This document shows, in pieces, positions 13,400 to 38,778 of a stretch of 64,000 nucleotides of DNA. The position numbers and the translations under genes are program-made. A model generated the notes under the pieces. That model did no database searches. It was not told the DNA's origin and saw nothing but the letters and a program-made list of their open reading frames with translations. Each line of letters starts with the position of its first letter. Position 1 is the stretch's first letter. Origin of the DNA: Blastocystis sp. Blastoise (lineage: Eukaryota > Protista > Bigyra: Opalinata); assembly GCA_039096225.1 (NCBI GenBank), contig JBBPEB010000004.1:1178001-1242000 (forward strand), given 5' to 3'.

Positions 13400-13529
13400 T
13401 TTAATAATACTTCCGCTCTTCGATCTCCAGTATTTCACTCGATATTACCCCTGTATCGGAAAATCATACTGATTTTCCGATCAGGGGTAATAGACGAGTG
13501 CTGGAGATCTCGGCTGAAGTATTATTAAA
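13400..13529. other. Left terminal imperfect palindrome/hairpin (130 nt; loop TAC at 13467-13469)
   Basis: Stems of 14, 9, 6, 11 and 12 bp are separated by bulges and internal loops, e.g. ATCGGAAAATCA-tac-TGATTTTCCGAT and TATTACCCCTG/CAGGGGTAATA. Confidence 0.95.
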
Positions 13530-13760
13530 ACTTCCGAAACATGGGGAAGTGATAAAAGTAAGGGTAGTTTTAAAAATAATCAAAAAAGTAATTTTAAAGT
13601 GATTTGATTGGTCCATTTGGGGGTGTGCGTCATCGATTTCTAATTCCCTAATATTATAAAATATTTTTTTGCATTATGGATTATGGATTTCATAAATCAA
13701 TAAACCCATAATCCCCTTATATCTACAGAGTTTGGGGAAAAAAATTTCAAAACTGGCTCT
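13407..13760 (+). repeat. Left terminal inverted repeat (354 bp)
   Basis: ATACTTCCGCTCTTCGATC...CAAAACTGGCTCT is the reverse complement of 38425-38778. The lengths are equal and I found no mismatch by eye. Confidence 0.97.
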
Positions 13761-13949
13761 ATTTTTCTTTGTTATTTTTATTATGGTTTATTTTAAATAA
13801 ATAAAAAGACCCGACATAACCGGGGATAGAACCCTTATATGTATATTTTTCAACATATCGTCGTATCCACCTGATATGCCAGGTCTCACTTTATATTTTT
13901 ATTATTATTTTTTTTAAACCAAACAAATTAAATATAATCAAAAAAAAAA

Positions 13950-16900
13950 TTAATAACCAAAATAAGGAGCATAATACTCTTTATTTTCATAAAATATTTT
14001 TAATTTTTTGACATTTTTCGAAAATAAATTAGCGTCAAAGCCGACAATATTCACTACAGAGGTACTAATACGGTATTCTTCCGTGAATTTTTTCATATTA
14101 ACACTATAATTATAAGATTTATCAATAAGAATACCTTTAATACCTATAGCAGTGTGATCCTTATAGTATTCGCTTTGATGAGTTCTACGGTAATCCAACA
14201 TATCAATTTCGTAGAATTCGGAGTTTGCCAGAAATGCAGTACACAACTGCTTGAAAAATTTATCTAGATTTGTCTGGATAGTAAATTTAGCATCTTTATT
14301 AAAATCTTTATAAGCGATAAAGATATCTTCTAAAGATACGACATTAATAAAGAAAGGATCTATTTGTAATTTAGCCTTGACAAAATCTTTCATATTATAT
14401 CCAGAAGAACATTTTTCTAAGAAATCTTCTTTACACGTGGCAATGGCTTGTATTCCTTGTAAAATATCCATATTAAGACGTAAGCTACGTTCAAGATAGT
14501 GGAAGATTAACCAAGAGAATATAGCATTTGTATGTTTTTTAAACAGAAAAGATACGTTAGGATCCATTGGATAGTGATTTTTCTTTTTAGCTAGAAGACC
14601 TTGATTCACGGCTATTTGGATTTCTTCCTCTGTATTATATCGTTTTCTCTTGGTTAAATAATCTCCTTTAGGTTCATAGAGTGTTACTGATGAAGGTGGT
14701 AAATAGCGGCAAAGTGACGGTAAGAAGACTACTCTACGTTCTAAAGGTCCGGCATTCACGGCAGTAGGTTGAATATTAGAGGTAACAAAAAGAATTCCCG
14801 TGTAATTATAGGTTTGAATAACATTAGAGTGAAGAAGACGAGCAGTAGCGTCTGATTTCTTTTCACATAATTCCTTGAATATACGAGATTCTAGGGGATT
14901 TACAGATTTCTTAAACCCTCCTGAATGTTCACTAAGTTCATTCATATAATACATAGTTTTATTATGTAAATTAAGTAGAAATGGAGAAGCTGAAGTTTCT
15001 TCAAAGTTATCAGGATTTACGGGAATACATTGATTATTACCTAGAATATTTTTCATAATATCAGTAGTTATAGTTTTTCCATTGGCACCAGAAGTACCAT
15101 ATAGGATATAACACCAAGTGTGATCGGAACAACAATAGAGTGATTGACAAATGATTTGCATCATAGCATCTGCGTAATCACCGTCGCCTCCACAATAACG
15201 TAATACATGTCTTTGAAATTGTTTTATAGCATCAAAGTCTTCAGGTACATGTTTTGTTTTAGGGACAATTTGTGCATTAATAATCATTTCTTCAAAGATA
15301 ATATCTTCTTTTTCATAGGGAATTACATCATAAGAAGGAGAATGTAAAAGGTGATATTGTGCTCCAGGGAATTCAGCTGTCCAATCATCTACAATGGTTG
15401 GTTCAGGGGCATTTGTTAGCGGAACAACAAAACCGACATTTGTATAAATAACATTTTCTCTATGTTTGAGATGAATATCTCTGAAAGTTTCATAAGATAT
15501 AGCGTAAGTTTTCTGATATCTAGCTAACCATTCCTTATAGTTTTTTTCATTTGTTTTAGAGGCATTTTGAAGTTTATTAAGAGAGAATATATGACTCTTA
15601 AGTTCTTTTTTAAATTGTTTTGCTTGTTGAAAGTTCTCGGCAATTGAATTAGCAAAAGAAGTAATTTCTGATTCAAAGAAGTTAACATCATAAGAATGGT
15701 GAATATTTCTTAAAACGTTGAATTCATCATAAGCATATATCTTTACGAATTTTTTAGATATATCTTCAACCATAACACGATCATTAAAGCAGAAAGTTTT
15801 GAATAATTCCACGAATGCTTGAGAAGTAACTTCATTATGTCTAGATATAGATTTCATCACATGGCAAAAGATATAATCATTCTTACAATCTATTGGTAGT
15901 TTATTGTGTTTTTGTAAGATAAAGAAAAGATACGAAGAATCTTTAAAATAATTATAAGATTCATAGCTAGACGTATTATTCCAAGTAGATTTGAATTTCT
16001 GTAAGCTACGAGTATGAGAACATGAGTTACTTATATTCATAAAAAGATTCAAAGTATCTTCAGAGTTATTATAATTATTTGTAGCACGTATAAGCTTATA
16101 CCATTCATTATGAGATTCAAAATAATATCCATTATCTATTTCAGAAATAAGTGTTAGTATTTGTTCTAATAAATTAAATTCATAATTATCTACTTCTTCA
16201 GAGTTATTATCCATAGTAGCAGGGTTAATATCTTTATAAGCTTTATTAATAGAGTATGCTGTAGTAAAACTATTAATAGTATCTTTATCAAAGGATAATA
16301 TTTTATGAAGGTATCTTTTTACATTATTTTTATTTAATAGTTCTGAAAATAAAACATAATTACTGAAACATACAAAAACATCATTAGGAGAATTATAATT
16401 AAGTAGAGTAGAATAATAAGCATTTTTGATTATATCAGAGTTTTCAAAATTAATTTTTTGCCAAGAATTTGATTCATACATATCGTAGAAATCATATGTA
16501 GACGGAGAATTAGTTTTAGAACATCCAAGCATCATTACACCATTATTTCGATTCTTATTTGCAATTACGGCTCCATCAATAAAGCGACTAGGAATTACAT
16601 TCATAGAGTTACATATAGATTTAACCATATCATCTTCAACAATTTCATTATATATATGAGTTAAAATATCAATTTTTATAAACCAATTGGTGAAGACGTG
16701 CATACCCCAACTATAGAAGAGACCATTTGCTTTTTCTTTTCTATTGACAAGCTTCTTAGTAGTAATAATATTCATATTATTTGGATTATATATCTTTAAG
16801 AACAATTGACTAATACGTTCAATCAGCATATGTATATTATTATCAGATAGATCGGAGAATTCATTTTCTTCACGGCAACAATCAAGATCAAACCATAATC

Positions 16901-17114
16901 GACGATAAGCTTTCTCAACAGTAGTAGGGACAACATCAATATAATGCTTAAGTTCAGGGACTCCACCAGGTTGTTTACTATCTAAATAATATTTATACAT
17001 ATAATCATAGAATTTCGAAGGGTTTTGAACAACTGTAGCAGCCCTGTTATCCATAGTATTTTCTTGATTGAAGGTAGAATACTTACAAATTGTTTGATTT
17101 TGAATTTCAGCCAT
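13950..17114 (-). CDS. Primase-helicase: AEP-like primase + PriCT-2 + D5-like SF3 helicase
   Basis: AEP motifs LWFDLDC, WGMHVF, FIDGAV and MLGCSK; PriCT-2-like HNEWYKLIRA...KSTWN; Walker A GTSGANGKT, Walker B YYMNE, motif C FVTSN, Arg finger LERR. First ATG is at 17114 (the ORF track starts at TTG 17141). Confidence 0.9.
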   Translation of the reverse strand: MAEIQNQTICKYSTFNQENTMDNRAATVVQNPSKFYDYMYKYYLDSKQPGGVPELKHYIDVVPTTVEKAYRRLWFDLDCCREENEFSDLSDNNIHMLIERISQLFLKIYNPNNMNIITTKKLVNRKEKANGLFYSWGMHVFTNWFIKIDILTHIYNEIVEDDMVKSICNSMNVIPSRFIDGAVIANKNRNNGVMMLGCSKTNSPSTYDFYDMYESNSWQKINFENSDIIKNAYYSTLLNYNSPNDVFVCFSNYVLFSELLNKNNVKRYLHKILSFDKDTINSFTTAYSINKAYKDINPATMDNNSEEVDNYEFNLLEQILTLISEIDNGYYFESHNEWYKLIRATNNYNNSEDTLNLFMNISNSCSHTRSLQKFKSTWNNTSSYESYNYFKDSSYLFFILQKHNKLPIDCKNDYIFCHVMKSISRHNEVTSQAFVELFKTFCFNDRVMVEDISKKFVKIYAYDEFNVLRNIHHSYDVNFFESEITSFANSIAENFQQAKQFKKELKSHIFSLNKLQNASKTNEKNYKEWLARYQKTYAISYETFRDIHLKHRENVIYTNVGFVVPLTNAPEPTIVDDWTAEFPGAQYHLLHSPSYDVIPYEKEDIIFEEMIINAQIVPKTKHVPEDFDAIKQFQRHVLRYCGGDGDYADAMMQIICQSLYCCSDHTWCYILYGTSGANGKTITTDIMKNILGNNQCIPVNPDNFEETSASPFLLNLHNKTMYYMNELSEHSGGFKKSVNPLESRIFKELCEKKSDATARLLHSNVIQTYNYTGILFVTSNIQPTAVNAGPLERRVVFLPSLCRYLPPSSVTLYEPKGDYLTKRKRYNTEEEIQIAVNQGLLAKKKNHYPMDPNVSFLFKKHTNAIFSWLIFHYLERSLRLNMDILQGIQAIATCKEDFLEKCSSGYNMKDFVKAKLQIDPFFINVVSLEDIFIAYKDFNKDAKFTIQTNLDKFFKQLCTAFLANSEFYEIDMLDYRRTHQSEYYKDHTAIGIKGILIDKSYNYSVNMKKFTEEYRISTSVVNIVGFDANLFSKNVKKLKIFYENKEYYAPYFGY

Positions 17115-17194
17115 TTTCAAATAAATATTTAAAAAATTCAAATAAATTAAATATTATTTTTAAAAGATTCAAATTAAATATTGTTTAAAAGTCT

Positions 17195-17460
17195 GTCATA
17201 TCAGGAAAAAAAATTAGAATGAATGGTTTTGAATATTTCTTCAACGTTGTCATTCCGGAAAGATTCGAAATGAATGGTTTTAAATATTGCTCCAAACGAC
17301 GTCATATCAGGAAAAACAAAATATGTGTTTTTTAGTATTGTTTCAAACGTTATCATTCCGGAAAGATTCGAAATGAGTGGTTTTGAATATTGCTCCAAAC
17401 ACCGTCATTCCGGAAAGATCCAAAATTGGTGGTTTTGAATATTGCTCCAAACTCCGTCAC
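17195..17460 (+). repeat. About five tandem 52-bp repeats in the divergent primase/SSB intergenic region
   Basis: Units start at 17195, 17249, 17301, 17352 and 17404. Consensus GTCATTCCGGAAAGATTCGAAATGAATGGTTTTGAATATTGCTCCAAACNNN. Confidence 0.9.
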
Positions 17461-17624: not shown

Positions 17625-18365
17625 ATGTCTAGTGTTATTGTCCGCCCTGAAGATTCTTTTGATGCTACGAAGTTATCCCTTGTTAAGTTAGACCCAATTG
17701 ATAATATTTCTGAAAGGTATGATGTTTATTATAAAGAAAAAAGATTATTTATTCAAACTCCCGCCTTAATTGCCCCTTTTGCTTTGAAATATTTCTCTGA
17801 TGGATTTTCTTCGAAGTTAACTTTATTTATGGATAACGAAGACTTCAATTGTCTTGTTAAGTCAATTGATGATTTTGTATATATGTCTTTATTCCCTACC
17901 GCTGAGAGTCGTGCTGTCTATATGGATTTTGTAATGAAGAAGTATCCTTATTCTCTTGATAACTCCAATTGTATTACTTGTTCTTCTGATAATTGTTCTT
18001 GTTTATCTGTTAATAGGCCTTCAAACTTACTTTATTATATAGATTCTCCTTTAAAGAGTACTCCTACTAAGGTTATGACTATCAATGTTCCTTTAAAAGA
18101 TAGTTTTGTCCGTTTGAATACTTATGATTGTGAACTGAATTTATTAACTTGTTTTCGAAATGAAAAATACTCTGTTATGAAATTTAATGAAACATTCTTA
18201 ACTCCTGGTAGTACTATTAAAGTGCTTTTTTCTGTAAGTGTTAATTATAAGATAGTCAATGGTAATCCTCGCTATTTCTTTAACTTATATGCAACTCAAA
18301 TGATGATTATTGAAAGAGGTGATCAACATTATAGTACTATGCCTGTATGTTCTATAAAACCTTAA
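17625..18365 (+). CDS. Probable OB-fold ssDNA-binding protein (NCLDV/T7 gp2.5-like)
   Basis: LFIQTP...PF motif, a helix ending IDDFV, and C-terminal PGSTIKVLF...FFNLYATQMMI resemble NCLDV SSBs. It is divergent from the primase-helicase. ATG at 17625. Confidence 0.65.
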   Translation: MSSVIVRPEDSFDATKLSLVKLDPIDNISERYDVYYKEKRLFIQTPALIAPFALKYFSDGFSSKLTLFMDNEDFNCLVKSIDDFVYMSLFPTAESRAVYMDFVMKKYPYSLDNSNCITCSSDNCSCLSVNRPSNLLYYIDSPLKSTPTKVMTINVPLKDSFVRLNTYDCELNLLTCFRNEKYSVMKFNETFLTPGSTIKVLFSVSVNYKIVNGNPRYFFNLYATQMMIIERGDQHYSTMPVCSIKP

Positions 18366-18462: not shown

Positions 18463-19305
18463 ATGTCAAAACAGTATTCATCCTTTGTTATTTGGCCTGG
18501 TAGTAAACGTCGGGTAGCTGGTCAAATAGCAGATATTTTAAAGTCAGTGCCTAGAAATAATAATAATGAAAATCCAATGTATATTGAACCTTTTATTGGT
18601 AGTGGTCATGTATTTTTAAATTTAATGATGCAAGATTATCAAGATAGAACTGATCGTAAATATGTAATTAGTGATACTAATACTGATTTAATAAATTGTT
18701 GGAAATATATTCGTGATTATCCAATAAAATTAATAGTTGAATTAGAAAAATTAAATGATGTAGAAGATACTTCTGATAATTATTATGAATTACGTAAAAT
18801 ATTTAATACTTGTACAAATACTTTGATGCGTTGTGCTTACTTTATTGCTTTAAATAAACGATGTTTTTGTGGTATATATTCTGTAAATCAAAAAGATGAA
18901 TTTAATACTCCATGGGGATATAAAAGAAATAAAAATATATTTAATAAAGAAAATATTTTACAAATATCATCTTTATTAAATTATAATAATGTAACTATAT
19001 TAAATGATGATTATCGTGATATAATAAAGAAATATCCTAAGGGTATATATTATATGGATCCACCCTATATGAATACATTTGATCGTTATAGTAAAGATAA
19101 ATTTTCAAATAATGAATTCTTAGAAACTGTGAAAGAAATGAAAGATGCTATATGTGTATATATATCATGCAGTAATGAAATGAAAAAATCTTTTGATGAT
19201 AAAGATATACAATATACTTCAGTATTATCATTTTATCGTCAAAATACATATGTAAGAAGTAAAGGTGTATTATATGATGAATATATTTTACATATAAATT
19301 ATTAA
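18463..19305 (+). CDS. DNA adenine N6-methyltransferase, D12/Dam family
   Basis: WPGSK, YIEPFIGSG (SAM-binding motif I), ISDTN.DLIN, and catalytic YMDPPY. Confidence 0.93.
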   Translation: MSKQYSSFVIWPGSKRRVAGQIADILKSVPRNNNNENPMYIEPFIGSGHVFLNLMMQDYQDRTDRKYVISDTNTDLINCWKYIRDYPIKLIVELEKLNDVEDTSDNYYELRKIFNTCTNTLMRCAYFIALNKRCFCGIYSVNQKDEFNTPWGYKRNKNIFNKENILQISSLLNYNNVTILNDDYRDIIKKYPKGIYYMDPPYMNTFDRYSKDKFSNNEFLETVKEMKDAICVYISCSNEMKKSFDDKDIQYTSVLSFYRQNTYVRSKGVLYDEYILHINY

Positions 19306-19374: not shown

Positions 19375-20781
19375 ATGGAAACTTGTATATTAGGTATGCC
19401 AAGCCCTGGTGCGTTTGGTATAAATAAAATAGCAGTTGGTAAAGAAAATAGACCTTATAAACCTCAACCATTAAAAACATTAGATGAATATAATCCATTA
19501 ATATTTGAAGTAGGTCCAAATTCATCTTTTTTAGTATCAAATTTAAAAAAGAAAAATCAAATAGAAAATAAAATAAATTCTTATGTTAATCGTGATAAAG
19601 AATTTGGTATTAATACAGGTGCAGGAGGAGCTTTAATACAAGCAAAACCTGTAGGAAAAGGTGTAATAAATAAAAGGCGATATGATGATACTGTAGATAA
19701 TCAAGAAGAAGCTCATACTAGTGATGATCCACAGATTAATCCTACTAATTTTAAAGCACGTAATCGTATAGGTATAAAAGGTAAAGGACTAGCTTATAAT
19801 AGTCGTGAATTAAATAAATTACAAAATAATAAAGGTGGTGGTATAATTACAAAAACTTTAGGTCATACAATGAAAGCTATAGGTAAAGCTACAAAACGTA
19901 AATCAGTAGAACATATAGGTAATATGTTAACTGGTGATAATAATGATTCACAAGGTGGTATAGTAAATGGTTCATTAAATATAATAAAGAAGATAGCCAA
20001 TAGTAATCAAGGTAATGGAATTCATAGAAAATTAAATAAAACCTTTGGTGGTACATTATTAGAAAATAATTTATCAGGAGTTATTACTGCGATGGAGTCT
20101 TCTAGAGGTGGTTCTTTAGATGATAAATCTGTAAGGAAATTCTTTAAAACAAAAAATAAAAAAGGGAAATTAATTCCACCACAAATAGCTAATGCTTTAC
20201 AATTTATGGTAGATAACCGTAAAGGAATGCGTGCAGCAGGCTTAAAGCCACTGAATATGTCTAAATTACGTAAATATATAGATTTTAATGAATCTCCCGA
20301 TGGTGAACATTTAAGATTAAAGCGTGGTGGTGCTGTAGCAGATGAGGTAATGGGTGTAATAAATAATTTACCAAATATATGGAATATGGTAAAAGAAATA
20401 CCTTCTAAAGTAATGTATTATGCACAACCAGGTAAATTAAAAGAAGCATGGGATACAATGAAAGAAGAAAATGAAATCAAGAAACAAGAAATGGAAGTAG
20501 AAGGTGATTATCATAAAGAAGAATTAAAAGAAAGAAGGAAAAATTTAGAAAATTATCAAAAACAGAAAGCAGCAAATTCTCAACAAATAAATCAAAATGA
20601 TAATTTAATAAGTGATAATTCTCAAAAAACAAAAGATATTAAACAAATAGATGATAAACCCTATAAAGCAAGTGGTGTATTACGTGCTGCTGGTAGTAAA
20701 CAAAAATTAAAAGGTAAAGCATTTTATGAATATATGCAACAATGTAAACGAAATAAACATGGCAATAAGTCAAAAAACTAA
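19375..20781 (+). CDS. Basic virion core-like precursor (468 aa) with many GG/GxG putative protease sites
   Basis: K/G-rich, with motifs GAGGA, IKGKG, NKGGG, SQGG, NQGNG, TFGG, SRGG and LKRGG. It ends on A AAA AAC TAA, overlapping the protease frame. Confidence 0.6.
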   Translation: METCILGMPSPGAFGINKIAVGKENRPYKPQPLKTLDEYNPLIFEVGPNSSFLVSNLKKKNQIENKINSYVNRDKEFGINTGAGGALIQAKPVGKGVINKRRYDDTVDNQEEAHTSDDPQINPTNFKARNRIGIKGKGLAYNSRELNKLQNNKGGGIITKTLGHTMKAIGKATKRKSVEHIGNMLTGDNNDSQGGIVNGSLNIIKKIANSNQGNGIHRKLNKTFGGTLLENNLSGVITAMESSRGGSLDDKSVRKFFKTKNKKGKLIPPQIANALQFMVDNRKGMRAAGLKPLNMSKLRKYIDFNESPDGEHLRLKRGGAVADEVMGVINNLPNIWNMVKEIPSKVMYYAQPGKLKEAWDTMKEENEIKKQEMEVEGDYHKEELKERRKNLENYQKQKAANSQQINQNDNLISDNSQKTKDIKQIDDKPYKASGVLRAAGSKQKLKGKAFYEYMQQCKRNKHGNKSKN

Positions 20782-21362
20782 GAGGAGGAGGTTTAGAAGA
20801 AAGTAAAAATGAGAAAATAATACAAGAACACTTAGATTGTGATAATCCTATTATAAGTGATTCTGATAGAAAAGTAACTCCTAGATCTCCTGAAAATTTT
20901 TCTCAAAAAATAAGTCAATATACATTAATTCCTAAAAATTTAATAAAACAAATTTATAATTATGGTTATTTAAATAAACCAACAAGTGCTGTAGCTTGTA
21001 GTCGTGCAAAATCAACAATGAATATGTTAAATCATTCAAATCCAAATGGATATAATTATTATAATAGTTATGAAGAATTTGAAAATAATATAGATAATGA
21101 TAGAACAAAATATAATATGATATTTCATCAAAGTAATTCAGATCCTAACTTTGGACATTTTGAAGCTATTATCTATACTCCAAAGAAAATAGAACATTAT
21201 AGTAGTCTTGGGAATAAACCTAATTTTAGTAGAAATTTTGTAAATAGTCATAACATAGTATTCAGTCCTATTCAACATCAAAGCACATCTGAAAATGCTA
21301 ATGGTTGCTTTTATTATTCTTTATTATATTTATTAAGTAATAGTAATATAATGCCTTGTTAA
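20769..21362 (+). CDS. Adenain/Ulp1-like cysteine maturation protease (frame open from 20769; first ATG only at 21018)
   Basis: GHFEAI (catalytic His), IEHYSSLG (equivalent to the YFDSxG strand, with Asp replaced), QHQ...NGCFYYSL (oxyanion Gln and catalytic Cys). Confidence 0.75.
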   Translation, partial: VKKLRGGGLEESKNEKIIQEHLDCDNPIISDSDRKVTPRSPENFSQKISQYTLIPKNLIKQIYNYGYLNKPTSAVACSRAKSTMNMLNHSNPNGYNYYNSYEEFENNIDNDRTKYNMIFHQSNSDPNFGHFEAIIYTPKKIEHYSSLGNKPNFSRNFVNSHNIVFSPIQHQSTSENANGCFYYSLLYLLSNSNIMPC

Positions 21363-21448: not shown

Positions 21449-21868
21449 ATGTCACAACCTATTAATATGCATAATATGACTTATGCAAATTTTGCTGAAG
21501 AATTACGTGGTATAAAGAAAGATGCTATAAGGTCCTATGGAAATCGTATATTTAGTTTATGTTGTAGATTTATAGATTTTCATAAGAATGCAAATTTTAC
21601 AAAAAATGAATTAAATGGCTTACGTCGTGCCAGTGAATTTATAGATGATAATCAATGTCGTAAAGAAATTCAAAATATTATAGATAAGGAAATACAAAAA
21701 ATATATTCTAAAAATATTTATAATAATAATAATTCTATTCTATCTTCACAACCACATATATCTTCTATAGATAATGATTTAACACAGCCACCCTTTATAA
21801 ATAATAATCGTATGAATCAAAATGATTGTATGTCAGTAAATTCTTTTTTTAATAATAATAATAATTAA
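21449..21868 (+). CDS. Viral hypothetical protein (139 aa)
   Basis: Clean ORF with an AAAAATG start; no family recognised. Confidence 0.7.
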   Translation: MSQPINMHNMTYANFAEELRGIKKDAIRSYGNRIFSLCCRFIDFHKNANFTKNELNGLRRASEFIDDNQCRKEIQNIIDKEIQKIYSKNIYNNNNSILSSQPHISSIDNDLTQPPFINNNRMNQNDCMSVNSFFNNNNN

Positions 21869-22027: not shown

Positions 22028-22660
22028 TCATTCTTTATCAGAATTAGTTGTAGTATCTTCAGATTCAGATATACAGTCAAGATTAAGAGATGAGAAAGTA
22101 ACTAAAGGAGTTAAATTACGTTCAGGTTGACTAGGTTCAATCTTAGTTCTTTTAGCTTCATGAGTAGGAGTTCTTGGTGGAGTATCAATACCATTCTTAG
22201 ATATATTATATTTTACAAATTTTTCACATTCATCATATTTTTCTTTACGGATTCTTTTCATTTGTTTAAATAATGCTTCAGGATCATACATACCATGAAT
22301 TGAAAATTCAATAAATTGAAGATTACTTTCTATATCAGAAAATTCTTCATGAATTTGTTTTACTATGAATTTATGAAGTTTTCTATTATCAGCAGAATAA
22401 TCAATAAGAGCTAAATGTTCAGGGGCAGCTTTCTTAGCATTTTCATCATTCAAGATATTATCATACATATAAAGAGTATCAAATAAATAAGTATTCAATT
22501 CCTTTATATAGTCCACTGTTTGACGGATATTAAATATATAATCATCAATATTATTATTATAAGGCTCTTTCATATTCCATTTCAATAATTCCAGTTTTTT
22601 ACTTAAATTATTTTCTTTAAGGAGTTTAGAGTAAACTAAATTATTCAAATCTTCAGACAT
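22028..22660 (-). CDS. Viral hypothetical helical protein (210 aa)
   Basis: Clean ORF; shares the TGAATT..TGAAAATG start context with the replication genes. Confidence 0.75.
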   Translation of the reverse strand: MSEDLNNLVYSKLLKENNLSKKLELLKWNMKEPYNNNIDDYIFNIRQTVDYIKELNTYLFDTLYMYDNILNDENAKKAAPEHLALIDYSADNRKLHKFIVKQIHEEFSDIESNLQFIEFSIHGMYDPEALFKQMKRIRKEKYDECEKFVKYNISKNGIDTPPRTPTHEAKRTKIEPSQPERNLTPLVTFSSLNLDCISESEDTTTNSDKE

Positions 22661-29009: not shown

Positions 29010-30056
29010 ATGGTTAATAAAAAGAATTTATTAGAAAATGATAAAAGTGGTTGTGGTGTATTAGCATTTAAATATGGTAAAACACATCATAAAACTTATG
29101 AATCAAAATTTATATTAATTATTGCTAGAACATTTAGTGGTAAATCATGGTTAACAGTTAATTTACTTGCTTCTATGGATTTAAATAATAAATTTCGTCA
29201 AGTAAGTTTATTTTGTCCTAAAGCTAGTTCTATGAATGAATGTTATACATCATTACAAGATTTATTAGAACATGCTGAAATAAAATATCAATGGTATGAT
29301 AGTATTGATGATAAATTTAAAAAAATAAAAAGTATTGATGATCTTGTAACTACATATAAATTACCAGAACATAATTTTATTATTTTTGATGATATATATC
29401 CATTATCAAAAGAAACAAAACTATTATTGATATCATTATTATCTAAAGGTAGACATTATAAACAAAATGCTATTATATGTTTACAAAGCCATAAAGATAT
29501 TACAAATCAAAGTGTATTAAGTCAAGTAAGTCATTTTTTTATTAATAGTCAAGTTTTAAAACGTGATCCTGGTTTATTATTAAAAAAATTACAGTTAGAT
29601 CCACCTAATTTAGAAGAAATATTATCTGATATGGAATTAATAGAAGATAAACATCAATTTTTTATGTTAAAACAAGGTTGTGATGATTTAATACCTTGGA
29701 CTAATCCTGATGTTGGTACAAAACAAAATGCTTATAAAATGATGAAAAAACGTAAATGGACTGATATGGATGAAGCAAATGAAAAACGTGAAGAAGGAAA
29801 TGGTGGTAATATTAATTCTGATAATAAGAAAAGTAATAATGTAAATAATGATTATCTTTCAAAAAGAATAAAAAAAATATTACCAAATGAAGAAGATATA
29901 CAACTACGTGGTACAGAAATACCTGATAAAGATAAACCTAAAGATGATATTCTGCAAATATTACATGAACAAATACTACAAGATCAAAGATTAAAATATT
30001 TTAATCCATATCCTATGAAACGTAGATATCATGGTGCTCCATATCAATATAATTAA
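29010..30056 (+). CDS. A32-like (FtsK-HerA) DNA packaging ATPase
   Basis: Variant Walker A ARTFSGKS, Walker B FIIFDD, and KGRH...ICLQS (Arg finger and conserved Gln). Confidence 0.9.
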   Translation: MVNKKNLLENDKSGCGVLAFKYGKTHHKTYESKFILIIARTFSGKSWLTVNLLASMDLNNKFRQVSLFCPKASSMNECYTSLQDLLEHAEIKYQWYDSIDDKFKKIKSIDDLVTTYKLPEHNFIIFDDIYPLSKETKLLLISLLSKGRHYKQNAIICLQSHKDITNQSVLSQVSHFFINSQVLKRDPGLLLKKLQLDPPNLEEILSDMELIEDKHQFFMLKQGCDDLIPWTNPDVGTKQNAYKMMKKRKWTDMDEANEKREEGNGGNINSDNKKSNNVNNDYLSKRIKKILPNEEDIQLRGTEIPDKDKPKDDILQILHEQILQDQRLKYFNPYPMKRRYHGAPYQYN

Positions 30057-30058: not shown

Positions 30059-30093
<35 letters not shown>

Positions 30094-30109: not shown

Positions 30110-30805
30110 ATGGCTAGTATTGCTTATAACTATTTAAGTCAAAATTGTGATCCATCTAAATATGGTGGAAATATAAGAATTAAACCATCTGATGGATATA
30201 TGTTTGATAATGAAGGTGGAGCTATTAAAAATTTTGAATCACTTAATAAAGATATTAATATTAAAGAATTAGCTAGTAAACAAGAAAAAAAAAGAAATTG
30301 GATTCAAAAGAAATATGATACTGTTAAAGATTATTATGAAAATGCTAAAGAAAATCCAGACTATTATATTGCAACAGCATTTGGTGCTGCAGCTGTTCCT
30401 GTTATATTTCATTTTGGTCGTCAAGCTTTAAATTTTAGAAATAATTTTGTTGCTAATCAAAGAAGAAATCTACTTAATAATGATGAAGATGGATTTTTTG
30501 GAAGAAATGAAAACCGTCATAATGTTCGTAGAGGTAATCCATTAGCTATTATGGATATGAGTCCAAGAGATGATGCAGATGAAAATAATCATCATAGACT
30601 ACAACTACCTATATTATTTGATGATTTTAATTTGTTAGAAGTAAATCACAATGACCTGCCTGATAATGTCGATTTTACTAATATGCCACCATTAGAACCT
30701 ATAGATGAATTACCAGATAATAATAGACGACATGGTCATGGTATACATAATAAAAAAATAATAAAAAATAGAAAGAATAAAGTTATTAAACATAAATATA
30801 ATTAA
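30110..30805 (+). CDS. Viral hypothetical protein, possibly a virion protein (231 aa)
   Basis: YGG, EGG and RHGHG motifs, one hydrophobic segment (YYIATAFGAAAVPVIFHF), basic tail. Confidence 0.7.
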   Translation: MASIAYNYLSQNCDPSKYGGNIRIKPSDGYMFDNEGGAIKNFESLNKDINIKELASKQEKKRNWIQKKYDTVKDYYENAKENPDYYIATAFGAAAVPVIFHFGRQALNFRNNFVANQRRNLLNNDEDGFFGRNENRHNVRRGNPLAIMDMSPRDDADENNHHRLQLPILFDDFNLLEVNHNDLPDNVDFTNMPPLEPIDELPDNNRRHGHGIHNKKIIKNRKNKVIKHKYN

Positions 30806-30862: not shown

Positions 30863-31851
30863 ATGGATCAAAATAGTAGATATAGACATATTACTTTACA
30901 AGATATTTTAAATCGTAATTTTAAGCAACAATCTTGGGATCCATGGTTACCAAATAGTTATATATGTGAAGATGAACAACCAGTAATGCGTATTGCTCAT
31001 GATCCTAATGCACAAAATTCTATGAGTCAAATTATGAATATGGAAAAATATTTAAAAGAAAAAATGACTGATAAAGATATATTTATTAGTCAAATGAATG
31101 CAGCTAGAAAAGAAGGTGATGAAGAACGAGTTACAGCTATGGCTAAAATATATGCTAATAATAGTGGACTTTATACATCTAAACAAAACTGGTCTTTAAA
31201 CAAAGAGTATTTATATATTTTAGTTTAATATAGATATATAGTCTAGAAAAAATCCCTCCAAATCTAAAATTCCAAAATCGAGTTGATGATAAAAATACAT
31301 CCCCTAATCGTGGTTATGTTAATTCTTTACTAAATTATTTTACTGTTAAAAAAGAAGAAAATAATGATTTTTTTAATAATAATGAATTACCAAGTTTAAG
31401 ATATGAAAATGAATATGGTCATACTGATAATAAAGATAACAAACAAGATGATAAACAAGATAATAATCAAAATAATAATGATCAACAATCAGATATACAA
31501 ACAGTATTAGATACAAGAGTAAATAATTTTGTTAATATGGTAACTTCATGTTTATTTACGGATGGTAAAATTAATGGAAAACAGTTACGTAATTATTTTG
31601 AAAAAAGTGAATTATTATATACTCAACCAAATCGTATACGATATGATCCAGAACAAAATAAAGCTTTATATGAAAAAAGAGAATATATATCTAATTTTAA
31701 ATATATACTAAATTCTATCAATCTAAAACAAAGCCCTGAAAATGTTAAATATATTATATATGAAAAATTAAGTAAATATTTTGAAGACTATAAATTTGGT
31801 AAAGAAGAAGAAAACATGTTATGGAATAATCCATATTCATTTCGTAAATAA
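30863..31851 (+). CDS. Viral hypothetical protein, two exons (30863-31206, 31242-31851; 317 aa)
   Basis: A 35-nt GTATTT...ATATAG intron at 31207-31241 joins ORF 30863 to the frame of ORF 31537, which is open from 31234. 344+610 nt = 318 codons including the stop. Confidence 0.7.
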
Positions 31852-31925
31852 AAATTTATTTTATATAAGTTTATATATATATATTTTTTTAATTATTTGT
31901 TTTGTTATATAACATTTTTTATTAA

Positions 31926-33650
31926 ATGCAAAGTGCACCTATTGGTAATCAGTGTCCAGGTTCATTTCATTGTAATAAACTTGGAACAAAAGAATTATGG
32001 TTAGGATATACTAGGCCACATAAAGTTCCTACTATTCTTGTTACACAACCTATTAACTATAATATAATTCCTAATAGTATTGAAAAAGTATGGGAAGATG
32101 AAAATGAAATGCATACACGTAGTTATCTTATGGGTAATACCCCTGAAAATAATAAAGCTTCTATTTCTAATATTCCTATTGAAACATCACCAAATAATGA
32201 TTCTGAAGAATATGAATCTAATGATTCTGAAGAAGGTGATTCTGAAGATAATGAATCTGATGATGATGAATCTGATGAGTCTCTAAAAGGATCTGGAGGA
32301 GGACTACTGCCAGATGGCAGAATCCCAAGGCATATCGTAAAACGTCTACAAAGATATATTAACGTTGATTACCCTAGATTCAGACGAAATAATCCTGATT
32401 CAGACAATAAATATGATTCTCTATTAACATCTGAAAATTTTAATAAATATATTAAAGTTGATAAAAGTGGTTGTGGTATACTAGATCCCGAAGGAAGTGG
32501 TTGGTGGGATACCGCCAAAAATTTATTATCAAAAACATATAATACTGGAAAATCCGTTTATAACCTTGGTACTAAAGCAGTTAAAGGTGCTAGTAAATTA
32601 TTAAATGGTATTGATTATGCTACAAATATTCCTGGAAAAATTAAGGAGAAATTAGATACTGTTTCTAAAAATATTAATGGGAAAATCATACATACAAAAA
32701 ATGGAATTAAAAGGGAATATTATTCTCGTTTTGGAGATTCTACTGAAGCACCAAAAACTATGTTAAATAATTTAAAAGCTTTAAAAAATACTCAATATGA
32801 GGGTATGACTGATAAAATGAGTAAGTTAACAAAAAAACGTATTCATAAGTCTTATATTAAAAGTGATGAATTAAAAACAAATGAAGGTAAACAAAATGTT
32901 ACTAAACGTATGAACAATGTTGATAATTTAAAAGATGGTTTTAACGCATTGGCTAAAGCTGAAAATAAAAAAATTGATAAATATAATAAAAGTCAAATTA
33001 AAGCTCAAAAACAAAAACAAAAAGATATTGAATATGAAAAAGCTAAACAAGGTACTTTACAGAAAATTAAAGGTAGTCTATCAGATATGGTTACTAATGC
33101 TGGTAAAAAAATATATAATAAAACTGTTGGAGAAGTTACAGGTAATAAGTATACTGAAGAAAAACCAGATCAAAAGAATAAATTAGATCTTGTGGAAACT
33201 GGAGGAGATAGACGTAAAGTAACTAAACCTAAAAAACAATTTAATAAAGATACTTTAAGCCAATTGAGTGATGATAAAAAATCTGCAATTGAACAAAAAC
33301 GTGCTGAACGTGCTGAAAGAATTAAACATACTGAAGAAATTAATCAAAAACGTAGAGATGGTTTTAAAGCAAGAAGAGCTGAAGCCCATAAAAAAGTAGA
33401 TGAAGAAGAAACAAAACGAAAAAAAGAGAATGATGAGTGGAATAATAAGAGCTACTTAGGTCAATTCTACTCTTATATGACGACGCCAAGTAAATCAAAA
33501 GGAGAAACTGAGAAACAAAAAGACGACGGTGATTGGGTAAATAAAGAAAATGACATAAGCAACATCGATGTTGCGTCAGGTATGCGTCGACGTCGACGAA
33601 CCCTACGTAAGAAAAAGAGAAACCAGATTCTCAAAGAAATAAATTGGTAA
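31926..33650 (+). CDS. Virion precursor-like protein (574 aa) with an acidic block, GxG sites, an amphipathic helix and an Arg-rich tail (adenovirus pVI-like organisation)
   Basis: LKGSGGG, KSGCG, EGSG-WWDTAKNLLSKTYNTGKSVYNLGTKAVKG, and C-terminal VASG-MRRRRRTLRKKKR. Confidence 0.6.
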   Translation: MQSAPIGNQCPGSFHCNKLGTKELWLGYTRPHKVPTILVTQPINYNIIPNSIEKVWEDENEMHTRSYLMGNTPENNKASISNIPIETSPNNDSEEYESNDSEEGDSEDNESDDDESDESLKGSGGGLLPDGRIPRHIVKRLQRYINVDYPRFRRNNPDSDNKYDSLLTSENFNKYIKVDKSGCGILDPEGSGWWDTAKNLLSKTYNTGKSVYNLGTKAVKGASKLLNGIDYATNIPGKIKEKLDTVSKNINGKIIHTKNGIKREYYSRFGDSTEAPKTMLNNLKALKNTQYEGMTDKMSKLTKKRIHKSYIKSDELKTNEGKQNVTKRMNNVDNLKDGFNALAKAENKKIDKYNKSQIKAQKQKQKDIEYEKAKQGTLQKIKGSLSDMVTNAGKKIYNKTVGEVTGNKYTEEKPDQKNKLDLVETGGDRRKVTKPKKQFNKDTLSQLSDDKKSAIEQKRAERAERIKHTEEINQKRRDGFKARRAEAHKKVDEEETKRKKENDEWNNKSYLGQFYSYMTTPSKSKGETEKQKDDGDWVNKENDISNIDVASGMRRRRRTLRKKKRNQILKEINW

Positions 33651-33699
33651 ATTCAAATATTTTATTAAATTCTGCCGCCTTAATTTGAATTTTTTGAAA

Positions 33700-34800
33700 A
33701 TGAACTGTACTATTCCTATGAAGAAAATGAAGAATATACATTATAATTCTATTTACTTTACGATTATCCATGTAGCTAAGTGGACTGATGAATGGAAAAA
33801 TAAGCAATTGAGTAACTTTGAACAATATATTAATCCTATGCCTGAGAAAGTATTCATGCGAATGATTGGTACACCTACTATCTTCATTGATTATATTCGT
33901 AATAAGTATAAACCTTCTATTAATACAATTAAAGCAATTGCCGAACTTATTATGTTTATCTATAAAGAAGATAAAACCTTAAAGAAGCGTATTATTGTTA
34001 TTAAAAGCTGGGAAGCCATGTATTCTATTATTAATAGTATTTATACTGATGTTCTTAAATCGAAGACTGATGCTGCTTTAAAGATGTTAAAAGATAACAA
34101 TTGCTCTTTAGAAAATTTTAAAAAGATAAGAGATACTTGTTCTGTTGCTGATCCTCTACGTTTATTAATTGATCTATATGTCTTAATGCCTCCTGCTCGT
34201 GCTGATTATGGTAACTTGATGATATATAAAGAAAAACCTGAAAAACCTGAATCTACTTCTTATGTCATTCCTACTCTAGATAGTACTATTGAAAATCCTT
34301 CTTATGAAATTCATGTTACTGAATATAAAACTGTCAAAACTTATGGTGAACGTATACTTAAGTGTTGTTCTGAATTTAATTCAGATTTAAATGAAATACT
34401 TACTTTGAATTCTAATAGTCGTTATTTATTCCATAAACCTGGTAAGAATGAATGTTATTCTCCTAAACGCTTTTCTGAATTTGTTAAAAATATTATGAGA
34501 CGTGTTGTTCCTGGAGGTATTACTATTAATAGTCTACGTAAACTCTATTGCTCTACTCATGGTAATAACTTTGAAGAAATGAATCAATTGGCTTTAGATC
34601 TCGGGCACTCTCTTAAAACTCATATTAATAACTATATGTCTATTACTACTACTGATTTCTTAACTAATTTAACTAAAGAAAATCAACTTACTATTACTCC
34701 TGTTCCTGCTGATGATGAAGATATACCTATTAACGTTAATAATGATTCTTCTAATCTTGAAAACTGGTGTAAAAACTTAAGTCAATGTTGGACTGAATAA
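33700..34800 (+). CDS. Tyrosine recombinase 1 (PLV type)
   Basis: Catalytic order R (PPARADY), K (YKTVKTYG), xxLR (INSLRK), H (LGHS), Y (HINNY). ATG at 33700. Confidence 0.9.
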   Translation: MNCTIPMKKMKNIHYNSIYFTIIHVAKWTDEWKNKQLSNFEQYINPMPEKVFMRMIGTPTIFIDYIRNKYKPSINTIKAIAELIMFIYKEDKTLKKRIIVIKSWEAMYSIINSIYTDVLKSKTDAALKMLKDNNCSLENFKKIRDTCSVADPLRLLIDLYVLMPPARADYGNLMIYKEKPEKPESTSYVIPTLDSTIENPSYEIHVTEYKTVKTYGERILKCCSEFNSDLNEILTLNSNSRYLFHKPGKNECYSPKRFSEFVKNIMRRVVPGGITINSLRKLYCSTHGNNFEEMNQLALDLGHSLKTHINNYMSITTTDFLTNLTKENQLTITPVPADDEDIPINVNNDSSNLENWCKNLSQCWTE

Positions 34801-34869: not shown

Positions 34870-36669
34870 TTAATATTTTAATTTTAAAAATAGACCTGCA
34901 CCATGATTATGTTTCTTAGGAATCTTTATACGTATTATATTTGGTTTTCGTATAATATTAGACTGACTACGTGTAGCATAAGGGTGTTCTTTACCATCTT
35001 CTACATAAGCATCATACTCACTACTTCTCTTACTCATATTATGTAATGCCTGACTTTCTCTAGGTATCATCACACCAGTACGAGTATCTTTATCGATTTG
35101 ACGAACTAATGATTTACTCTTTATATATTTTATATATTTCTCACGATCTTTATCTTTCCAAATTACAGTCTTATCTGGACAACCCTCAGGTAATTGATTT
35201 TCTAAATCTGTTCTATTTGGATATTCACCATTTTTAAATTTTGAATATATTTCTAATAAACCTTTTTTAAACTCTGGAAAATCATTTAATTTATTAAACG
35301 ATATATTCTGACCCTCACTTAGATACTCTCCAAAATTCTCTTCACCAAATACATCTGTATAATCTTCATGATATTCTAAAATACGTTCTAAAAATCTTCT
35401 ATAGAGAAACATATCCTTCTCTTTATCTTCTAATAACCATTCTTTAAATAGAGATCTACCATTTATCTGAATAGGTCTAAATTGTTTATCTATTTGTTTT
35501 TTCTTTTTATTTACACGTTCTAAGAAGGGTGTTATATATTGTTCTAAATGAGTTGATGTAGCATGTAGCATCTTCTCTACACTTTTCTCAAATATTTCTT
35601 GACCACGTACTTCTAACTGAGGATCTCCACTCTCTGTTAATCTTAAATATATTTTATAATAACATTGAGCGAACAAATGACGTATTACATCACAACCTGT
35701 TATTAACTGTCTTTCTACTACTTGACCATTTATCTCATCTTTATATGTAAATATTCTACCTAAATGCATCTTTATATATTCTCCAAATTTATTTTCTCCA
35801 ATAAATCCATGAGTTATTTCATTTATAAATAACTCATCTCTTGGATATAATCTTAATGATCTTGCTAATACATTTAAAAATTCTTCTGAGACTTCTTGTT
35901 TTGTTTTAACACGATTTATACCTAACTGGTATACATTCTTAGTATCATTTACATTTATTGTTAAATCATTTAAATCTAAATAATTTGTAGACTTTTTAAG
36001 ACTTGAAGGTACTTTAGAACTACGAGTATATATCTTACAATCACCATAATCATTACGACAACATAAACAATCATAAGTTAATACTAATAAATAACTATTA
36101 ACATAAAATAAATCATTTGGATTCTTTAAATAATCATCTTTTGTTTTATTTATTAATATATCCCATTGAGCTCCAGACTCAGTTATTCTATCGGTATACT
36201 CATAATGTCTAGCAGTAGTAGCATTATGTTGTAGAGATACCCATATTGTTTTATATTTCTTTATATTAGACCTTAGAAATACAGGAGACCTTAATATTTG
36301 TCTATCATCTGTTAATATATCTATATTTTCCATTATAAACTCTAACATAGCCATATAGTTAGCTACAGAGGTCTTAGATAACCCTCCTGTTTGACCATGA
36401 GCTTTTGTCTCAGAATTTAATAAAATACTTGAAATATATTCAGGATAGCCTAATGCTTCTATACAGAAGTATGGAGCTAAATCAGGTTTATGAATACTTT
36501 CATCAATATTAATATTAGCAGCTACACGAAACTTAGAACATATAGTACGCATATTACGCATATATACTTCATAAGTAGATTCACGGATACGTTTAAAATG
36601 ATATAAATCACGAATACAGTTCATAAAAAAATCTTCACATTCTTCATCAGAATCCCCACGTTTATACAT
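34870..36669 (-). CDS. Tyrosine recombinase 2 (divergent, about 200-aa C-terminal extension)
   Basis: R (LCCRNDYG), K (DTKNV), xxIRH (DVIRHLF), H (MLHAT), Y (HLEQY); N-terminal STYEVY...SVANY resembles a core-binding domain. Confidence 0.82.
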   Translation of the reverse strand: MYKRGDSDEECEDFFMNCIRDLYHFKRIRESTYEVYMRNMRTICSKFRVAANINIDESIHKPDLAPYFCIEALGYPEYISSILLNSETKAHGQTGGLSKTSVANYMAMLEFIMENIDILTDDRQILRSPVFLRSNIKKYKTIWVSLQHNATTARHYEYTDRITESGAQWDILINKTKDDYLKNPNDLFYVNSYLLVLTYDCLCCRNDYGDCKIYTRSSKVPSSLKKSTNYLDLNDLTINVNDTKNVYQLGINRVKTKQEVSEEFLNVLARSLRLYPRDELFINEITHGFIGENKFGEYIKMHLGRIFTYKDEINGQVVERQLITGCDVIRHLFAQCYYKIYLRLTESGDPQLEVRGQEIFEKSVEKMLHATSTHLEQYITPFLERVNKKKKQIDKQFRPIQINGRSLFKEWLLEDKEKDMFLYRRFLERILEYHEDYTDVFGEENFGEYLSEGQNISFNKLNDFPEFKKGLLEIYSKFKNGEYPNRTDLENQLPEGCPDKTVIWKDKDREKYIKYIKSKSLVRQIDKDTRTGVMIPRESQALHNMSKRSSEYDAYVEDGKEHPYATRSQSNIIRKPNIIRIKIPKKHNHGAGLFLKLKY

Positions 36670-36678
36670 GACTGAAAA

Positions 36679-37011
36679 TTACTTAAAACAATTAATATTT
36701 TTTGATATTTCTGACAAAGTCTTTATTAATAAATCTAATTTTGTATTTATTATTTCAATAGACTCTGTTTCATCTAATGTATTTTCATGTATATCCTTTG
36801 CTTGATCTTTTATATCAGTTAACATTTTTTCTATTTTATATTGAGACTCTCTTAAGTGATGCAATCTAGCTACTTTATAAGGAGAACAACAGTTACAGTT
36901 AAAATTAATATTTTCTATTATACAACTTACTAGTTCACTACTTTTAGAGAATATAGATATTATTTTATCTATTATTGTTTTAAAACAATTATTCTTCACC
37001 TCGTTAGACAT
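36679..37011 (-). CDS. Small viral protein with a CNCC motif and coiled-coil tail (110 aa)
   Basis: Clean ORF ending 9 nt upstream of the YR2 start. Confidence 0.7.
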   Translation of the reverse strand: MSNEVKNNCFKTIIDKIISIFSKSSELVSCIIENINFNCNCCSPYKVARLHHLRESQYKIEKMLTDIKDQAKDIHENTLDETESIEIINTKLDLLIKTLSEISKNINCFK

Positions 37012-37545
37012 TATATTATTTAAAAAAAATTATAAAATTTCCATAAATAATATATTATATATTGATTCTATTAAGGATATCTATTTCAATTAAAATCATG
37101 TTTTTAATAATGAATAAATGAGTTTAAACAAAAATAGATATCATATTCGTAATCCCCGTAAAATTTACTATATATTTGACTATTTTTTTATTTGATTACT
37201 CAATATCATATATTAACCAACATACCAAGCAAAAGTCAATTGAGCAATTGGTCACGTACACCTTAAAATGGTCGTATCAATATATGGGTAACACCATTCA
37301 ATAGGGAATTTTATGCTTATTTCAACGGTGTATCAGGCATGTCTCAACGACGAGTATTTCCCTTTTAAAAAAAGGAATTACAATTGATTTATTTCTTTTA
37401 TCAATTGGTATTGTATAAGGTCATTTTTAATAGTTGTGTAATCAAATAAAAAGTATTTTTATTATTAAAACAATACAACAAAACAAAGTAATAAATAAAA
37501 AATTAAAAAACAAGAAAAACAAAAAAAAACAAAGATAAATATCAA

Positions 37546-38014
37546 TTACTTATAATAGTATACGACTTTTTTATACTTTCTGCATCCCTTTTTATGATGG
37601 TGTCTTCTAGTAGTATTAGGAGAACTTGGTTCAGCATAATTCACTCCTTCAGATGTATTATCTGGAGGAGCACACCAATTACAATTGCGAGGAGGTATCA
37701 AAATACTTCCATCTCTTCTCCAGGTAACATTGATATGATTTGGAAGTCTCCAAGTCAATAATCTCACCTGATCATAGAAGGCTTCTATCGACAAAGGTTC
37801 CAATTGGGGTAACAGAGTTCCATTCTCATTAGCAGGTTCATTAGTTTCATTAGAATCATCATCTATACTACTACCAACACTACCTAACTCAACTATATAT
37901 ATAAAATAATAATTGATATTTCAATTGCATACCTTTACAAACAGCTGGACTACAAGGAAGGCTATCATCAACATTAGTATCATCAGTTAACTCTAAAATA
38001 TCATTGGGATTCAT
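37546..38014 (-). CDS. Viral hypothetical protein, two exons (38014-37933, 37892-37546; 142 aa)
   Basis: A 40-nt intron (AAAG|GTATGC...ATATAG|TT at 37932-37893) joins MNPNDILEL...AVCK in frame to VELGSVG...EPLSIEAF. Confidence 0.75.
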
Positions 38015-38424
38015 TTTTAAGCTTTTATAATAAACAACAAATAAAATAAAATATGAACTTTTAAGAGAGCATTTCAAAGATAAAAATCAATCAGAGAAAC
38101 TCTGGTTTTTATAAAAATCAATGTTTTCATTGGTTGTTTTTCACTAAAAATGGGTTTTTCCTTTATGTCTTGATTTCTTATGTTTATCAATGGTTTTTAT
38201 TGATAGAAAACATTTACTATACATAATTGATTTTATTATTATAATATTATCAATTGAAACTTTTTTAAAAACTAATATTTTATATAAAAACATATATTTT
38301 TGACAATTTTAAATCAATTAATAACATTTTTTATACTTTTAAACATTAAATAATATAAATAAAAAATAAATAATATAAAATAATAAAATAAAACATATAA
38401 ACAAGCTTTCAATTGAAAAATAAA

Positions 38425-38778
38425 AGAGCCAGTTTTGAAATTTTTTTCCCCAAACTCTGTAGATATAAGGGGATTATGGGTTTATTGATTTATGAAATCC
38501 ATAATCCATAATGCAAAAAAATATTTTATAATATTAGGGAATTAGAAATCGATGACGCACACCCCCAAATGGACCAATCAAATCACTTTAAAATTACTTT
38601 TTTGATTATTTTTAAAACTACCCTTACTTTTATCACTTCCCCATGTTTCGGAAGTTTTAATAATACTTCAGCCGAGATCTCCAGCACTCGTCTATTACCC
38701 CTGATCGGAAAATCAGTATGATTTTCCGATACAGGGGTAATATCGAGTGAAATACTGGAGATCGAAGAGCGGAAGTAT
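38425..38778 (-). repeat. Right terminal inverted repeat (354 bp)
   Basis: Reverse complement of 13407-13760; ends ...GAAGAGCGGAAGTAT, followed by host CAAGTTCTG. Confidence 0.97.
38656..38778. other. Right terminal imperfect palindrome/hairpin (loop GTA at 38716-38718)
   Basis: Inverted copy of the left hairpin, with the outer arm 7 nt shorter. Confidence 0.95.

Follow-up and report, generated by a model that had tools for sequence, protein, structure and literature searches.

A probable integrated Polinton-like virus with terminal hairpins, and its recent relatives, in the genome of Blastocystis sp. Blastoise

We analyzed 64,000 nucleotides of contig JBBPEB010000004.1 of Blastocystis sp. 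Blastoise (assembly GCA_039096225.1, positions 1,178,001 to 1,242,000), hereafter the window. It contains an element of 25.4 kb between terminal inverted repeats (TIRs), whose arms (13407-13769 and 38416-38778) are the largest inverted repeat of the window. An earlier reading of the letters alone (the original prediction) had described the element as an intact endogenous Polinton-like virus (PLV) with about 18 essentially intact genes. We counted 19 open reading frames (ORFs) that start with ATG and encode 104-1054 aa, one nested 83-aa ORF being excluded. Coding density was 82-84% in the element versus 54% and 60% in the flanks. The element was nearly free of microsatellites, in which the flanks are rich. 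We consider the element an integrated virus of the PLV type, with a probability of about 0.93.

Major capsid protein 1 (MCP1) is encoded at 25179-26768 on the plus strand. It was folded with an 11-row alignment, and the model reached a predicted local distance difference test score (pLDDT) of 71.5. In a comparison with VIA, the top 16 rows were all double jelly-roll (DJR) capsids (Z 8.5-19.7). The Z values were 19.7 for PBCV-1, 19.6 for faustovirus, 18.0 for African swine fever virus, and 16.8 for Sputnik and mavirus. The Foldseek PDB rows listed for the model were also all DJR capsids, and in BFVD the top-ranking match came from a "MELD virus sp." and was uncharacterised (E 9e-16, 8% identity). 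MCP2 (26879-28180, plus strand) is a paralogue of MCP1 (30% identity, E 7e-42). The duplicated capsids of the original prediction were thus recovered, and the DJR fold foreseen for them was found in MCP1, on which the check was run. The single-sequence fold of MCP2 had a pLDDT of 35.8, and a prediction of the MCP1-MCP2 complex without alignments scored 0.00, which gives no answer either way. A profile of the MCP family found two frames in the window. Judged by length and composition, a third, unrelated MCP among the remaining ORFs is unlikely.

The DNA packaging ATPase (29010-30056, plus strand) matched PHROG 2666, a head-and-packaging family, with E 1.5e-9. Its Walker A, Walker B and GRH motifs were invariant in all seven aligned proteins, and it is presumably of the A32 subtype. 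A 217-aa protein between MCP2 and the ATPase (28232-28885, plus strand) is likely a penton or minor capsid protein, as its position and an FPGGNY motif suggest. An acidic 773-aa protein (22785-25106, minus strand) carries three IPxGxY repeats, which we take to mark a large minor capsid or spike protein. The 773-aa and 217-aa proteins had no significant match to each other. Among the operational features of a PLV, the element has a DJR MCP, a packaging ATPase, TIRs, a size in the range of 14-40 kb and a place in a protist genome; the 217-aa and 773-aa proteins are its candidates for the minor capsid protein.

Relatives of these proteins were few. The ATPase found 7 clusters among 1466 candidates and MCP1 found 9 among 3180. 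MCP2 found 9 proteins among 1.84 billion representatives, all within its own family. None of the ATPase, MCP1 and MCP2 searches reached a reference PLV protein. The distinct lineage proposed at first is borne out by these capsid searches. Every named relative was a "hypothetical protein" of Blastocystis sp. Blastoise, in agreement with the Blastocystis-like host that had been proposed. This strain is a tortoise isolate with 23% GC (PMC10690189; papers are cited here from portions of their text).

At least 22 ATPase loci were found, including the one in the window: three were near-identical, one was at 79% identity, and at least 18 were at 66%. The matching MCP1 cluster had 20 loci. The copies are spread over many contigs of 0.5-2.2 Mb, and the gene order of the element is repeated in locus tags WA158_003037-003050. 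Ten element proteins have copies elsewhere at 97-99.8% identity, indicating a recent burst. These copies agree with the young provirus of the original prediction. In one mosaic copy, the replication genes were at 97-99%, the ATPase at 79% and MCP1 at 60% identity. P0004, P0074, P0088, P0092, P0098 and P0123, which belong to the named copy WA158_006914-006926, and P0126 represent mosaic copies with near-identical replication genes and diverged capsid and ATPase genes. The core protein described below occurred as two allele types that were exchanged between copies. A further long-branched MCP1-type protein, P0086 (WA158_005820), lies nine locus tags from a near-identical element copy, and this placement suggests clustered or nested insertions.

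Additional lineages were present in public data: ENA/Logan assemblies contributed three branches for the ATPase and three for MCP1. The trees were built from 27 ATPase and 18 MCP1 rows chosen among the matches listed and contain family members only. The longest ENA/Logan contigs clustered at 23.6-24.1 kb and 25.9-27.5 kb, and none was longer among the matches listed. This clustering fits unit-length genomes, although collapsed proviral repeats would look alike. An animal-gut poly(A) run contained one 265-nt contig with 1 difference to the element, and a second public run contained four contigs of 168-202 nt with 95-99% identity. Depth in the two runs was 2-3. The pieces may stem from carried-over DNA, and neither run need be independent. 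The runs contained only 5-6% of the sampled words. Their pieces on 30863-34800 were short, at depth 2-3 and without joints, and are uninformative for expression or splicing. No related DNA was found in IMG/VR viral contigs, JGI metagenomes, prokaryote genomes or phage records.

The element might now spread only within its genome as a self-copying transposon, with capsid genes left intact from the recent burst and no particles made. The lack of a match among IMG/VR viral contigs agrees with this, as does the 773-aa gene, which is in two pieces in one named copy (P0099, P0100). However, the ATPase and MCP1 are full length in lineages that are only 63-66% and 39-49% identical, and the copies swap modules as the mosaic copy does. 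Full-length divergent virion genes together with module swapping suggest long selection on the virion module. We regard a purely intragenomic life as improbable and prefer an integrated virus.

The ends of the element were compared base by base. The TIRs (13407-13760, plus strand, and 38425-38778, minus strand) were identical over exactly 354 bp, with the first mismatch at position 355, so that the perfect 354-bp TIRs reported earlier are exact. The outer ~125 nt of each TIR form a mismatched, imperfect hairpin. The left hairpin (13400-13528, 129 nt, 106 of them paired) starts 7 nt outside the TIR. The right hairpin (38657-38778) is the same isomer and is 7 nt shorter. Their folding energies were -47 kcal/mol (z -11.3) and -40.8 kcal/mol (z -9.0), respectively, and none of 200 shuffles was as stable in either case. 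The hairpin ends of the original prediction therefore hold. Its left boundary at 13407 does not fare as well: the boundary is probably 13400. No target-site duplication (TSD) of 4-11 nt was present for any left boundary within 13395-13409 combined with any right boundary within 38774-38789, as had been stated. No further element copy or solo TIR was found elsewhere in the window.

The inner arm of the hairpin terminates in an inverted-repeat site, GAAGT-N9-ACTTC (13516-13534, plus strand), whose longer form is GGAAGTA-N7-AACTTCC. We propose this site at the hairpin base as a candidate recombinase core site. In the window it occurs at two places only, 13516 and 38651, both in the TIRs. Reading outward, the inner hairpin arm is matched for 14 nt by the left end and for 7 nt by the right end. 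In the flanks, the extra 7-mer of the left end occurs at a rate of 0.0005-0.0015 per site. Tyrosine recombinase core sites have a spacer between inverted arms. Allowing one chance A/T match per junction, both ends of this one insertion are consistent with cuts that flank a 7-nt spacer separating such arms, and the 7-nt difference between the ends is what a staggered cut by a recombinase would leave. A left-end spacer that is viral and not host suggests that the integrating molecule carried a palindrome extended past the hairpin base.

The junctions also bear on whether a co-cultured virus or a repeat was wrongly joined to a host contig. The cultures behind the assembly were possibly xenic (PMC10690189), reads across the junctions were not seen, and an A6 homopolymer lies at the core/protease frame break described below. 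Both junctions are nevertheless sharp and lie at the same hairpin-base site, copies occur on many contigs, and near-identical pieces were present in two public runs. A mis-join is hardly credible on this evidence.

Two candidate tyrosine recombinases (YRs) are encoded near the right end. YR1 (366 aa; 33700-34800, plus strand) matched the PHROG 216 integrase family with E 0.0014; its candidate catalytic residues are R167, K210/K213, R280, H303 and Y312. YR2 (599 aa; 34870-36669, minus strand) scored 0.93-0.95 to viral YR clusters in ESM-Atlas, and its candidates are R205, K244, R330, H369 and Y378. Judged from sequence, candidate R, K, R, H and Y residues are in order in both proteins. Motifs and, weakly, the PHROG match of YR1 and the Atlas clusters of YR2 speak for the two recombinases first proposed.

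Poxvirus genomes are linear and covalently closed, with mismatched hairpin ends. The free genome of the element could be similar; one YR would then resolve the telomeres at replicated junctions, while integration would be the task of the second. In the left hairpin, 23 of 129 nt are unpaired, and the hairpin and its reverse complement fold alike (-45.5 and -46.4 kcal/mol). The two recombinases look unrelated, and both are kept at 98-99.8% in copies. For an entomopoxvirus, a YR has been proposed to help resolve dimers at the hairpin ends (PMC11296320). On the other side, both ends carry the same isomer, and no protelomerase match was found in the Pfam, PHROGs and NCBIfam profiles (hereafter the three profile libraries). 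The whole unfolded palindrome at both ends is also explained by a fold-back-primed or circular intermediate. We consider closed poxvirus-like ends unlikely, and retain integration by a YR at the hairpin base as the preferred reading.

The replication genes lie at the left end. A primase-helicase of the AEP/PriCT-2/SF3 (D5-type) kind (1054 aa; 13950-17114, minus strand) was matched in its helicase part by PHROG 1156, a family of DNA primases (E 6.4e-14). Its PriCT_2 match was weak and under the cut-off (E 0.13), and we take DLD76, H139 and D180 in its N-terminal part to be AEP motifs. Next to it is a 246-aa protein (17625-18365, plus strand), a candidate single-stranded DNA-binding (SSB) protein on the basis of a motif, with no family match in the three profile libraries. 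The primase-helicase of the original prediction was therefore supported, but its SSB was matched by no tool. The nearest ESM-Atlas clusters of the SSB-like protein (0.95, 219 shared features) were unnamed proteins mostly from Basidiomycota, perhaps from fungal endogenous elements. Between the two divergent genes is a tandem array of 4.7 copies of 52 bp (17218-17459), which may be an origin or control region. A Dam-family adenine methyltransferase follows (18463-19305, plus strand; TIGR00571, E 8.8e-47, above the cut-off; PF02086), with FIGSG and DPPY intact. The element was not depleted in GATC (59 observed versus 56.9 expected).

Neither protein-primed DNA polymerase B (pPolB) nor rve integrase nor HUH endonuclease was matched in any of the 19 ORFs by the three profile libraries, as had been said for pPolB and rve. 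"No polymerase" was put too strongly, because an AEP can itself be a primase-polymerase. The replication module had also been called similar to that of nucleocytoplasmic large DNA viruses (NCLDVs). A special similarity is not supported: throughout the polisuviruses, replicases of the AEP kind have a strong association with tyrosine recombinases (10.64898/2026.10.13.758929). This linkage is the rule there, and a helicase-primase with a YR is typical of PLVs.

Two genes were not simple ORFs, which corrects the earlier picture. A basic 468-aa protein (19375-20781, plus strand; pI 9.8) has six GG motifs and is likely a core polyprotein. Its ORF ends in A AAA AAC followed by a stop. A frame of 197 codons for an adenain-like cysteine protease (20769-21362, plus strand; first ATG at 21018) is -1 to the core ORF and begins with K-K-L-R-G-G-G. 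It opens within the last ten bases of the core ORF and runs for 83 codons without Met up to the protease-like domain. This N-terminal part has no start codon and would be reachable only from the core ORF, by a -1 frameshift or a splice. The protease assignment follows an H...Q...C motif, which we take to be catalytic; profiles, including Pfam and NCBIfam, gave no match. PDB sequence searches with the protease candidate, the packaging ATPase, YR1, the primase-helicase and the SSB-like protein returned nothing meaningful.

In all four named gene models, predicted introns bridge the core/protease junction. The models use three different splice choices, and mapped on the window every such intron has a length of 2 mod 3. 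The four models include a core allele that is only 83% identical, so the frame break is probably shared and no private mutation. Introns of 26, 35 or 47 nt at the junction would also restore the frame. Frameshifting or slippage is our first choice for the joining of core and protease, at slightly less than even odds. Splicing is a tentative second, and a shared error or defect is an outcome that we would not expect.

The second region (30863-31851, plus strand) consists of a 121-aa ORF (30863-31228) and a frame of 205 codons (31234-31851, first ATG at 31537). They are best joined by a predicted 35-nt GT-AG intron at 31207-31241. A -1 frameshift was rejected here, since the -1 frame stops at 31231-31233.

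This intron bears on a further alternative, in which the element is helper-dependent and virophage-like, switched on by a large Blastocystis DNA virus that supplies polymerase and transcription. The three profile libraries found no processive polymerase or transcription factor in the element. Particles of up to 200 nm have been reported in simian Blastocystis (PMC12835684), and several PLVs are described as helper-dependent. However, the predicted host-style intron fits nuclear transcription, and 16 element genes shared no upstream motif beyond A/T runs. The gut egoviruses are described as without gene flux with Blastocystis (10.1101/2024.03.23.586382, in part). We find a helper somewhat unlikely. 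It would be compatible with both YR integration and packaging as we propose them for a virus that uses host transcription.

The proposed course of events is as follows. A tyrosine recombinase of the element would recognise GGAAGTA-N7-AACTTCC at the hairpin base, make a cut staggered by 7 nt in the mirrored copy of the site that lies outside, and join the DNA to AT-rich host DNA without homology. One end would keep the 7-nt spacer, the other would be without it, and no TSD would arise. Once the element is excised, its terminal palindromes would act as origins, together with the 52-bp array. The AEP-SF3 protein would prime and unwind, and DNA synthesis would fall to the AEP or to nuclear polymerases of the host, not to a protein-primed polymerase. 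Host Pol II would transcribe the genes, at least one of them with a host-style intron. The protease would be made as a minority core-protease fusion, by -1 frameshift or splicing, and would cut at GG motifs during maturation. MCP1, MCP2, the penton and the ATPase would then package the DNA. The odds slightly favor this scheme as a whole, from identity and integration through replication, expression and maturation to packaging.

Several points weigh against it. The end geometry is known from a single insertion, and with the hairpin isomer identical at both ends, flip and flop forms were not seen. YR1 and YR2 aligned no better than shuffles, and their profile support is weak, which qualifies the earlier call of two recombinases. 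The penton, protease and SSB labels are without tool support. Slippery heptamers are common (76 in 6715 codons), and no stimulatory structure was found after the slippery site (z +0.79). The gene model P0122 was identical to the window ORF over the matched part and may be the same locus. Expression, splicing, free DNA and junctions are backed by no reads.

The remaining ORFs have few features. A basic 574-aa protein (31926-33650, plus strand; pI 9.4) is likely a second core protein. A 210-aa protein (22028-22660, minus strand) is 99.5% identical in another copy. Proteins of 139 aa (21449-21868, plus strand), 231 aa (30110-30805, plus strand) and 110 aa (36679-37011, minus strand) were recognized as ORFs. 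The 1.4 kb before the right TIR is otherwise empty and has, on the minus strand, a 124-codon frame without ATG (37546-37920) overlapped by a 65-codon frame (37889-38086). They are possibly another spliced gene; neither had a Pfam match. Rfam found no match in the element. Third-position GC was 0.05-0.06 in MCP1, MCP2 and the ATPase. In the two YRs and the primase-helicase it was 0.13-0.20, which suggests that the modules differ in origin. The flanks have 22-23% GC, and with the named relatives this makes a tortoise-type Blastocystis host likely. Three of their 15 frames had Pfam matches above the cut-off (BTB_2, TLDc and He_PIG), and two of the domains are of eukaryote type. On the minus strand of one flank (39206-47246), overlapping frames of 885 and 1881 codons with a putative Ig domain meet in a long AAT repeat. 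Both may belong to a single gene, split by an intron or by a slip in repeat length.

Among known systems, AHEV_PLV2 and CBEV_PLV1, which are associated with entomopoxviruses, and PLVs of oomycetes share the DJR MCP, ATPase, cysteine protease and TIRs with the element (PMC11296320, PMC7805220). They also share a primase-helicase and YR in place of pPolB and rve, with the replicase adjoining a TIR. The Blastocystis element differs from them in its capsid relatives, which are only in its own family, in two YRs at the end opposite the replicase, and in long terminal hairpins. Some oomycete PLVs have TSDs of 5-7 bp, whereas the element has none. The palindrome-ended virophages of Halocafeteria seosinensis and its PLV subtype 4 (10.64898/2026.07.28.741278) share a stramenopile host, palindromes in the TIRs and a non-pPolB replicase, and hairpin priming has been proposed for them. 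They are linked to TSDs and RVE integrases, and the palindromes of subtype 5 measure 52 nt; the element has ~125-nt mismatched hairpins, YRs only and no TSD. Trimcap PLVs (PMC7805220; 10.64898/2026.06.19.733378) likewise have multiple MCPs and stramenopile hosts, and some of them carry two minor capsid genes. Their three MCPs are highly divergent, whereas two 30%-identical paralogues were found here.

The Blastocystis hominis MELD virus (PMC8502044) is likewise a Blastocystis-associated, mid-size DNA virus with unrecognisable virion proteins. Unlike the Blastoise element, it has PolB and a retrovirus-like integrase. Mriyaviricetes (10.1101/2024.02.29.582850) are also without a DNA polymerase and have an SSB and a helicase that is often AEP-fused. 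They are 35-45 kb long, a range outside which the element falls, and have HUH endonuclease in all members, VLTF2/3 and RuvC; integration and protease are never mentioned in the portions of that paper considered. HUH, VLTF2/3 and RuvC had no match in the element in the three profile libraries, and these are families that need HHpred or folds. MCP1 scored slightly higher against NCLDV capsids (Z 18-19.7) than against virophage capsids: the Z of 16.8 to Sputnik and mavirus is below those to PBCV-1 and faustovirus, and there is no sequence similarity to the virophage type. Mavericks/Polintons and adintoviruses share the bounding TIRs, DJR MCP, ATPase and protease, and they have duplicate hexons and predicted -1 frameshift hexon-adenain fusions (PMC11071296). 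The element, in contrast, is without pPolB, rve and the 5-6 bp TSD, and the frame partner of its protease is a basic core protein, not a hexon.

The architecture is consequently less exceptional than the original prediction held. AEP-helicase with YR (10.64898/2026.10.13.758929), multiple capsids, which are common among PLVs (10.64898/2026.06.19.733378), and terminal palindromes with non-pPolB replicases (10.64898/2026.07.28.741278) are each on record for PLVs in the available text of these papers. What seems new is the capsid lineage, its host, the two recombinases, the long mismatched hairpins with a candidate recombination site at the base, and a protease for which recoding or a splice would be needed. 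Sequence surveys cannot pick up the capsid, given its divergence. The literature searched gave no account of this YR/AEP lineage in Blastocystis; most subscription papers lie outside it, and the lineage could sit unnamed in meldvirus or PLV data sets. For the terms searched, the Blastoise genome paper had no passage on viral elements (PMC10690189, in part). For ten Blastocystis assemblies of other strains, the count cell is empty in Table S1 of PMC10120064, as far as its rows below the header go.

No eukaryote is more common in the vertebrate gut than Blastocystis, and what is known of its viruses comes from a single mined genome and a handful of old micrographs (PMC12835684, in part). The element might represent a lineage of gut-protist viruses that is new at the level of a class and is both active and widespread in Blastocystis. 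It would have mismatched hairpin telomeres like those of poxviruses, one YR that resolves the ends, another that integrates by a 7-nt stagger, and a Gag-Pro-style protease frameshift. We consider this a long shot. If true, the lineage could account for some of the unexplained particles seen in Blastocystis cells. A young family of about 20 intact copies in a cultured strain makes it testable whether Blastocystis makes DNA virions. Its many insertions allow the end geometry to be read, and with it how YR-encoding PLVs integrate. The family also makes it testable whether terminal hairpins prime replication in PLVs that are without pPolB.

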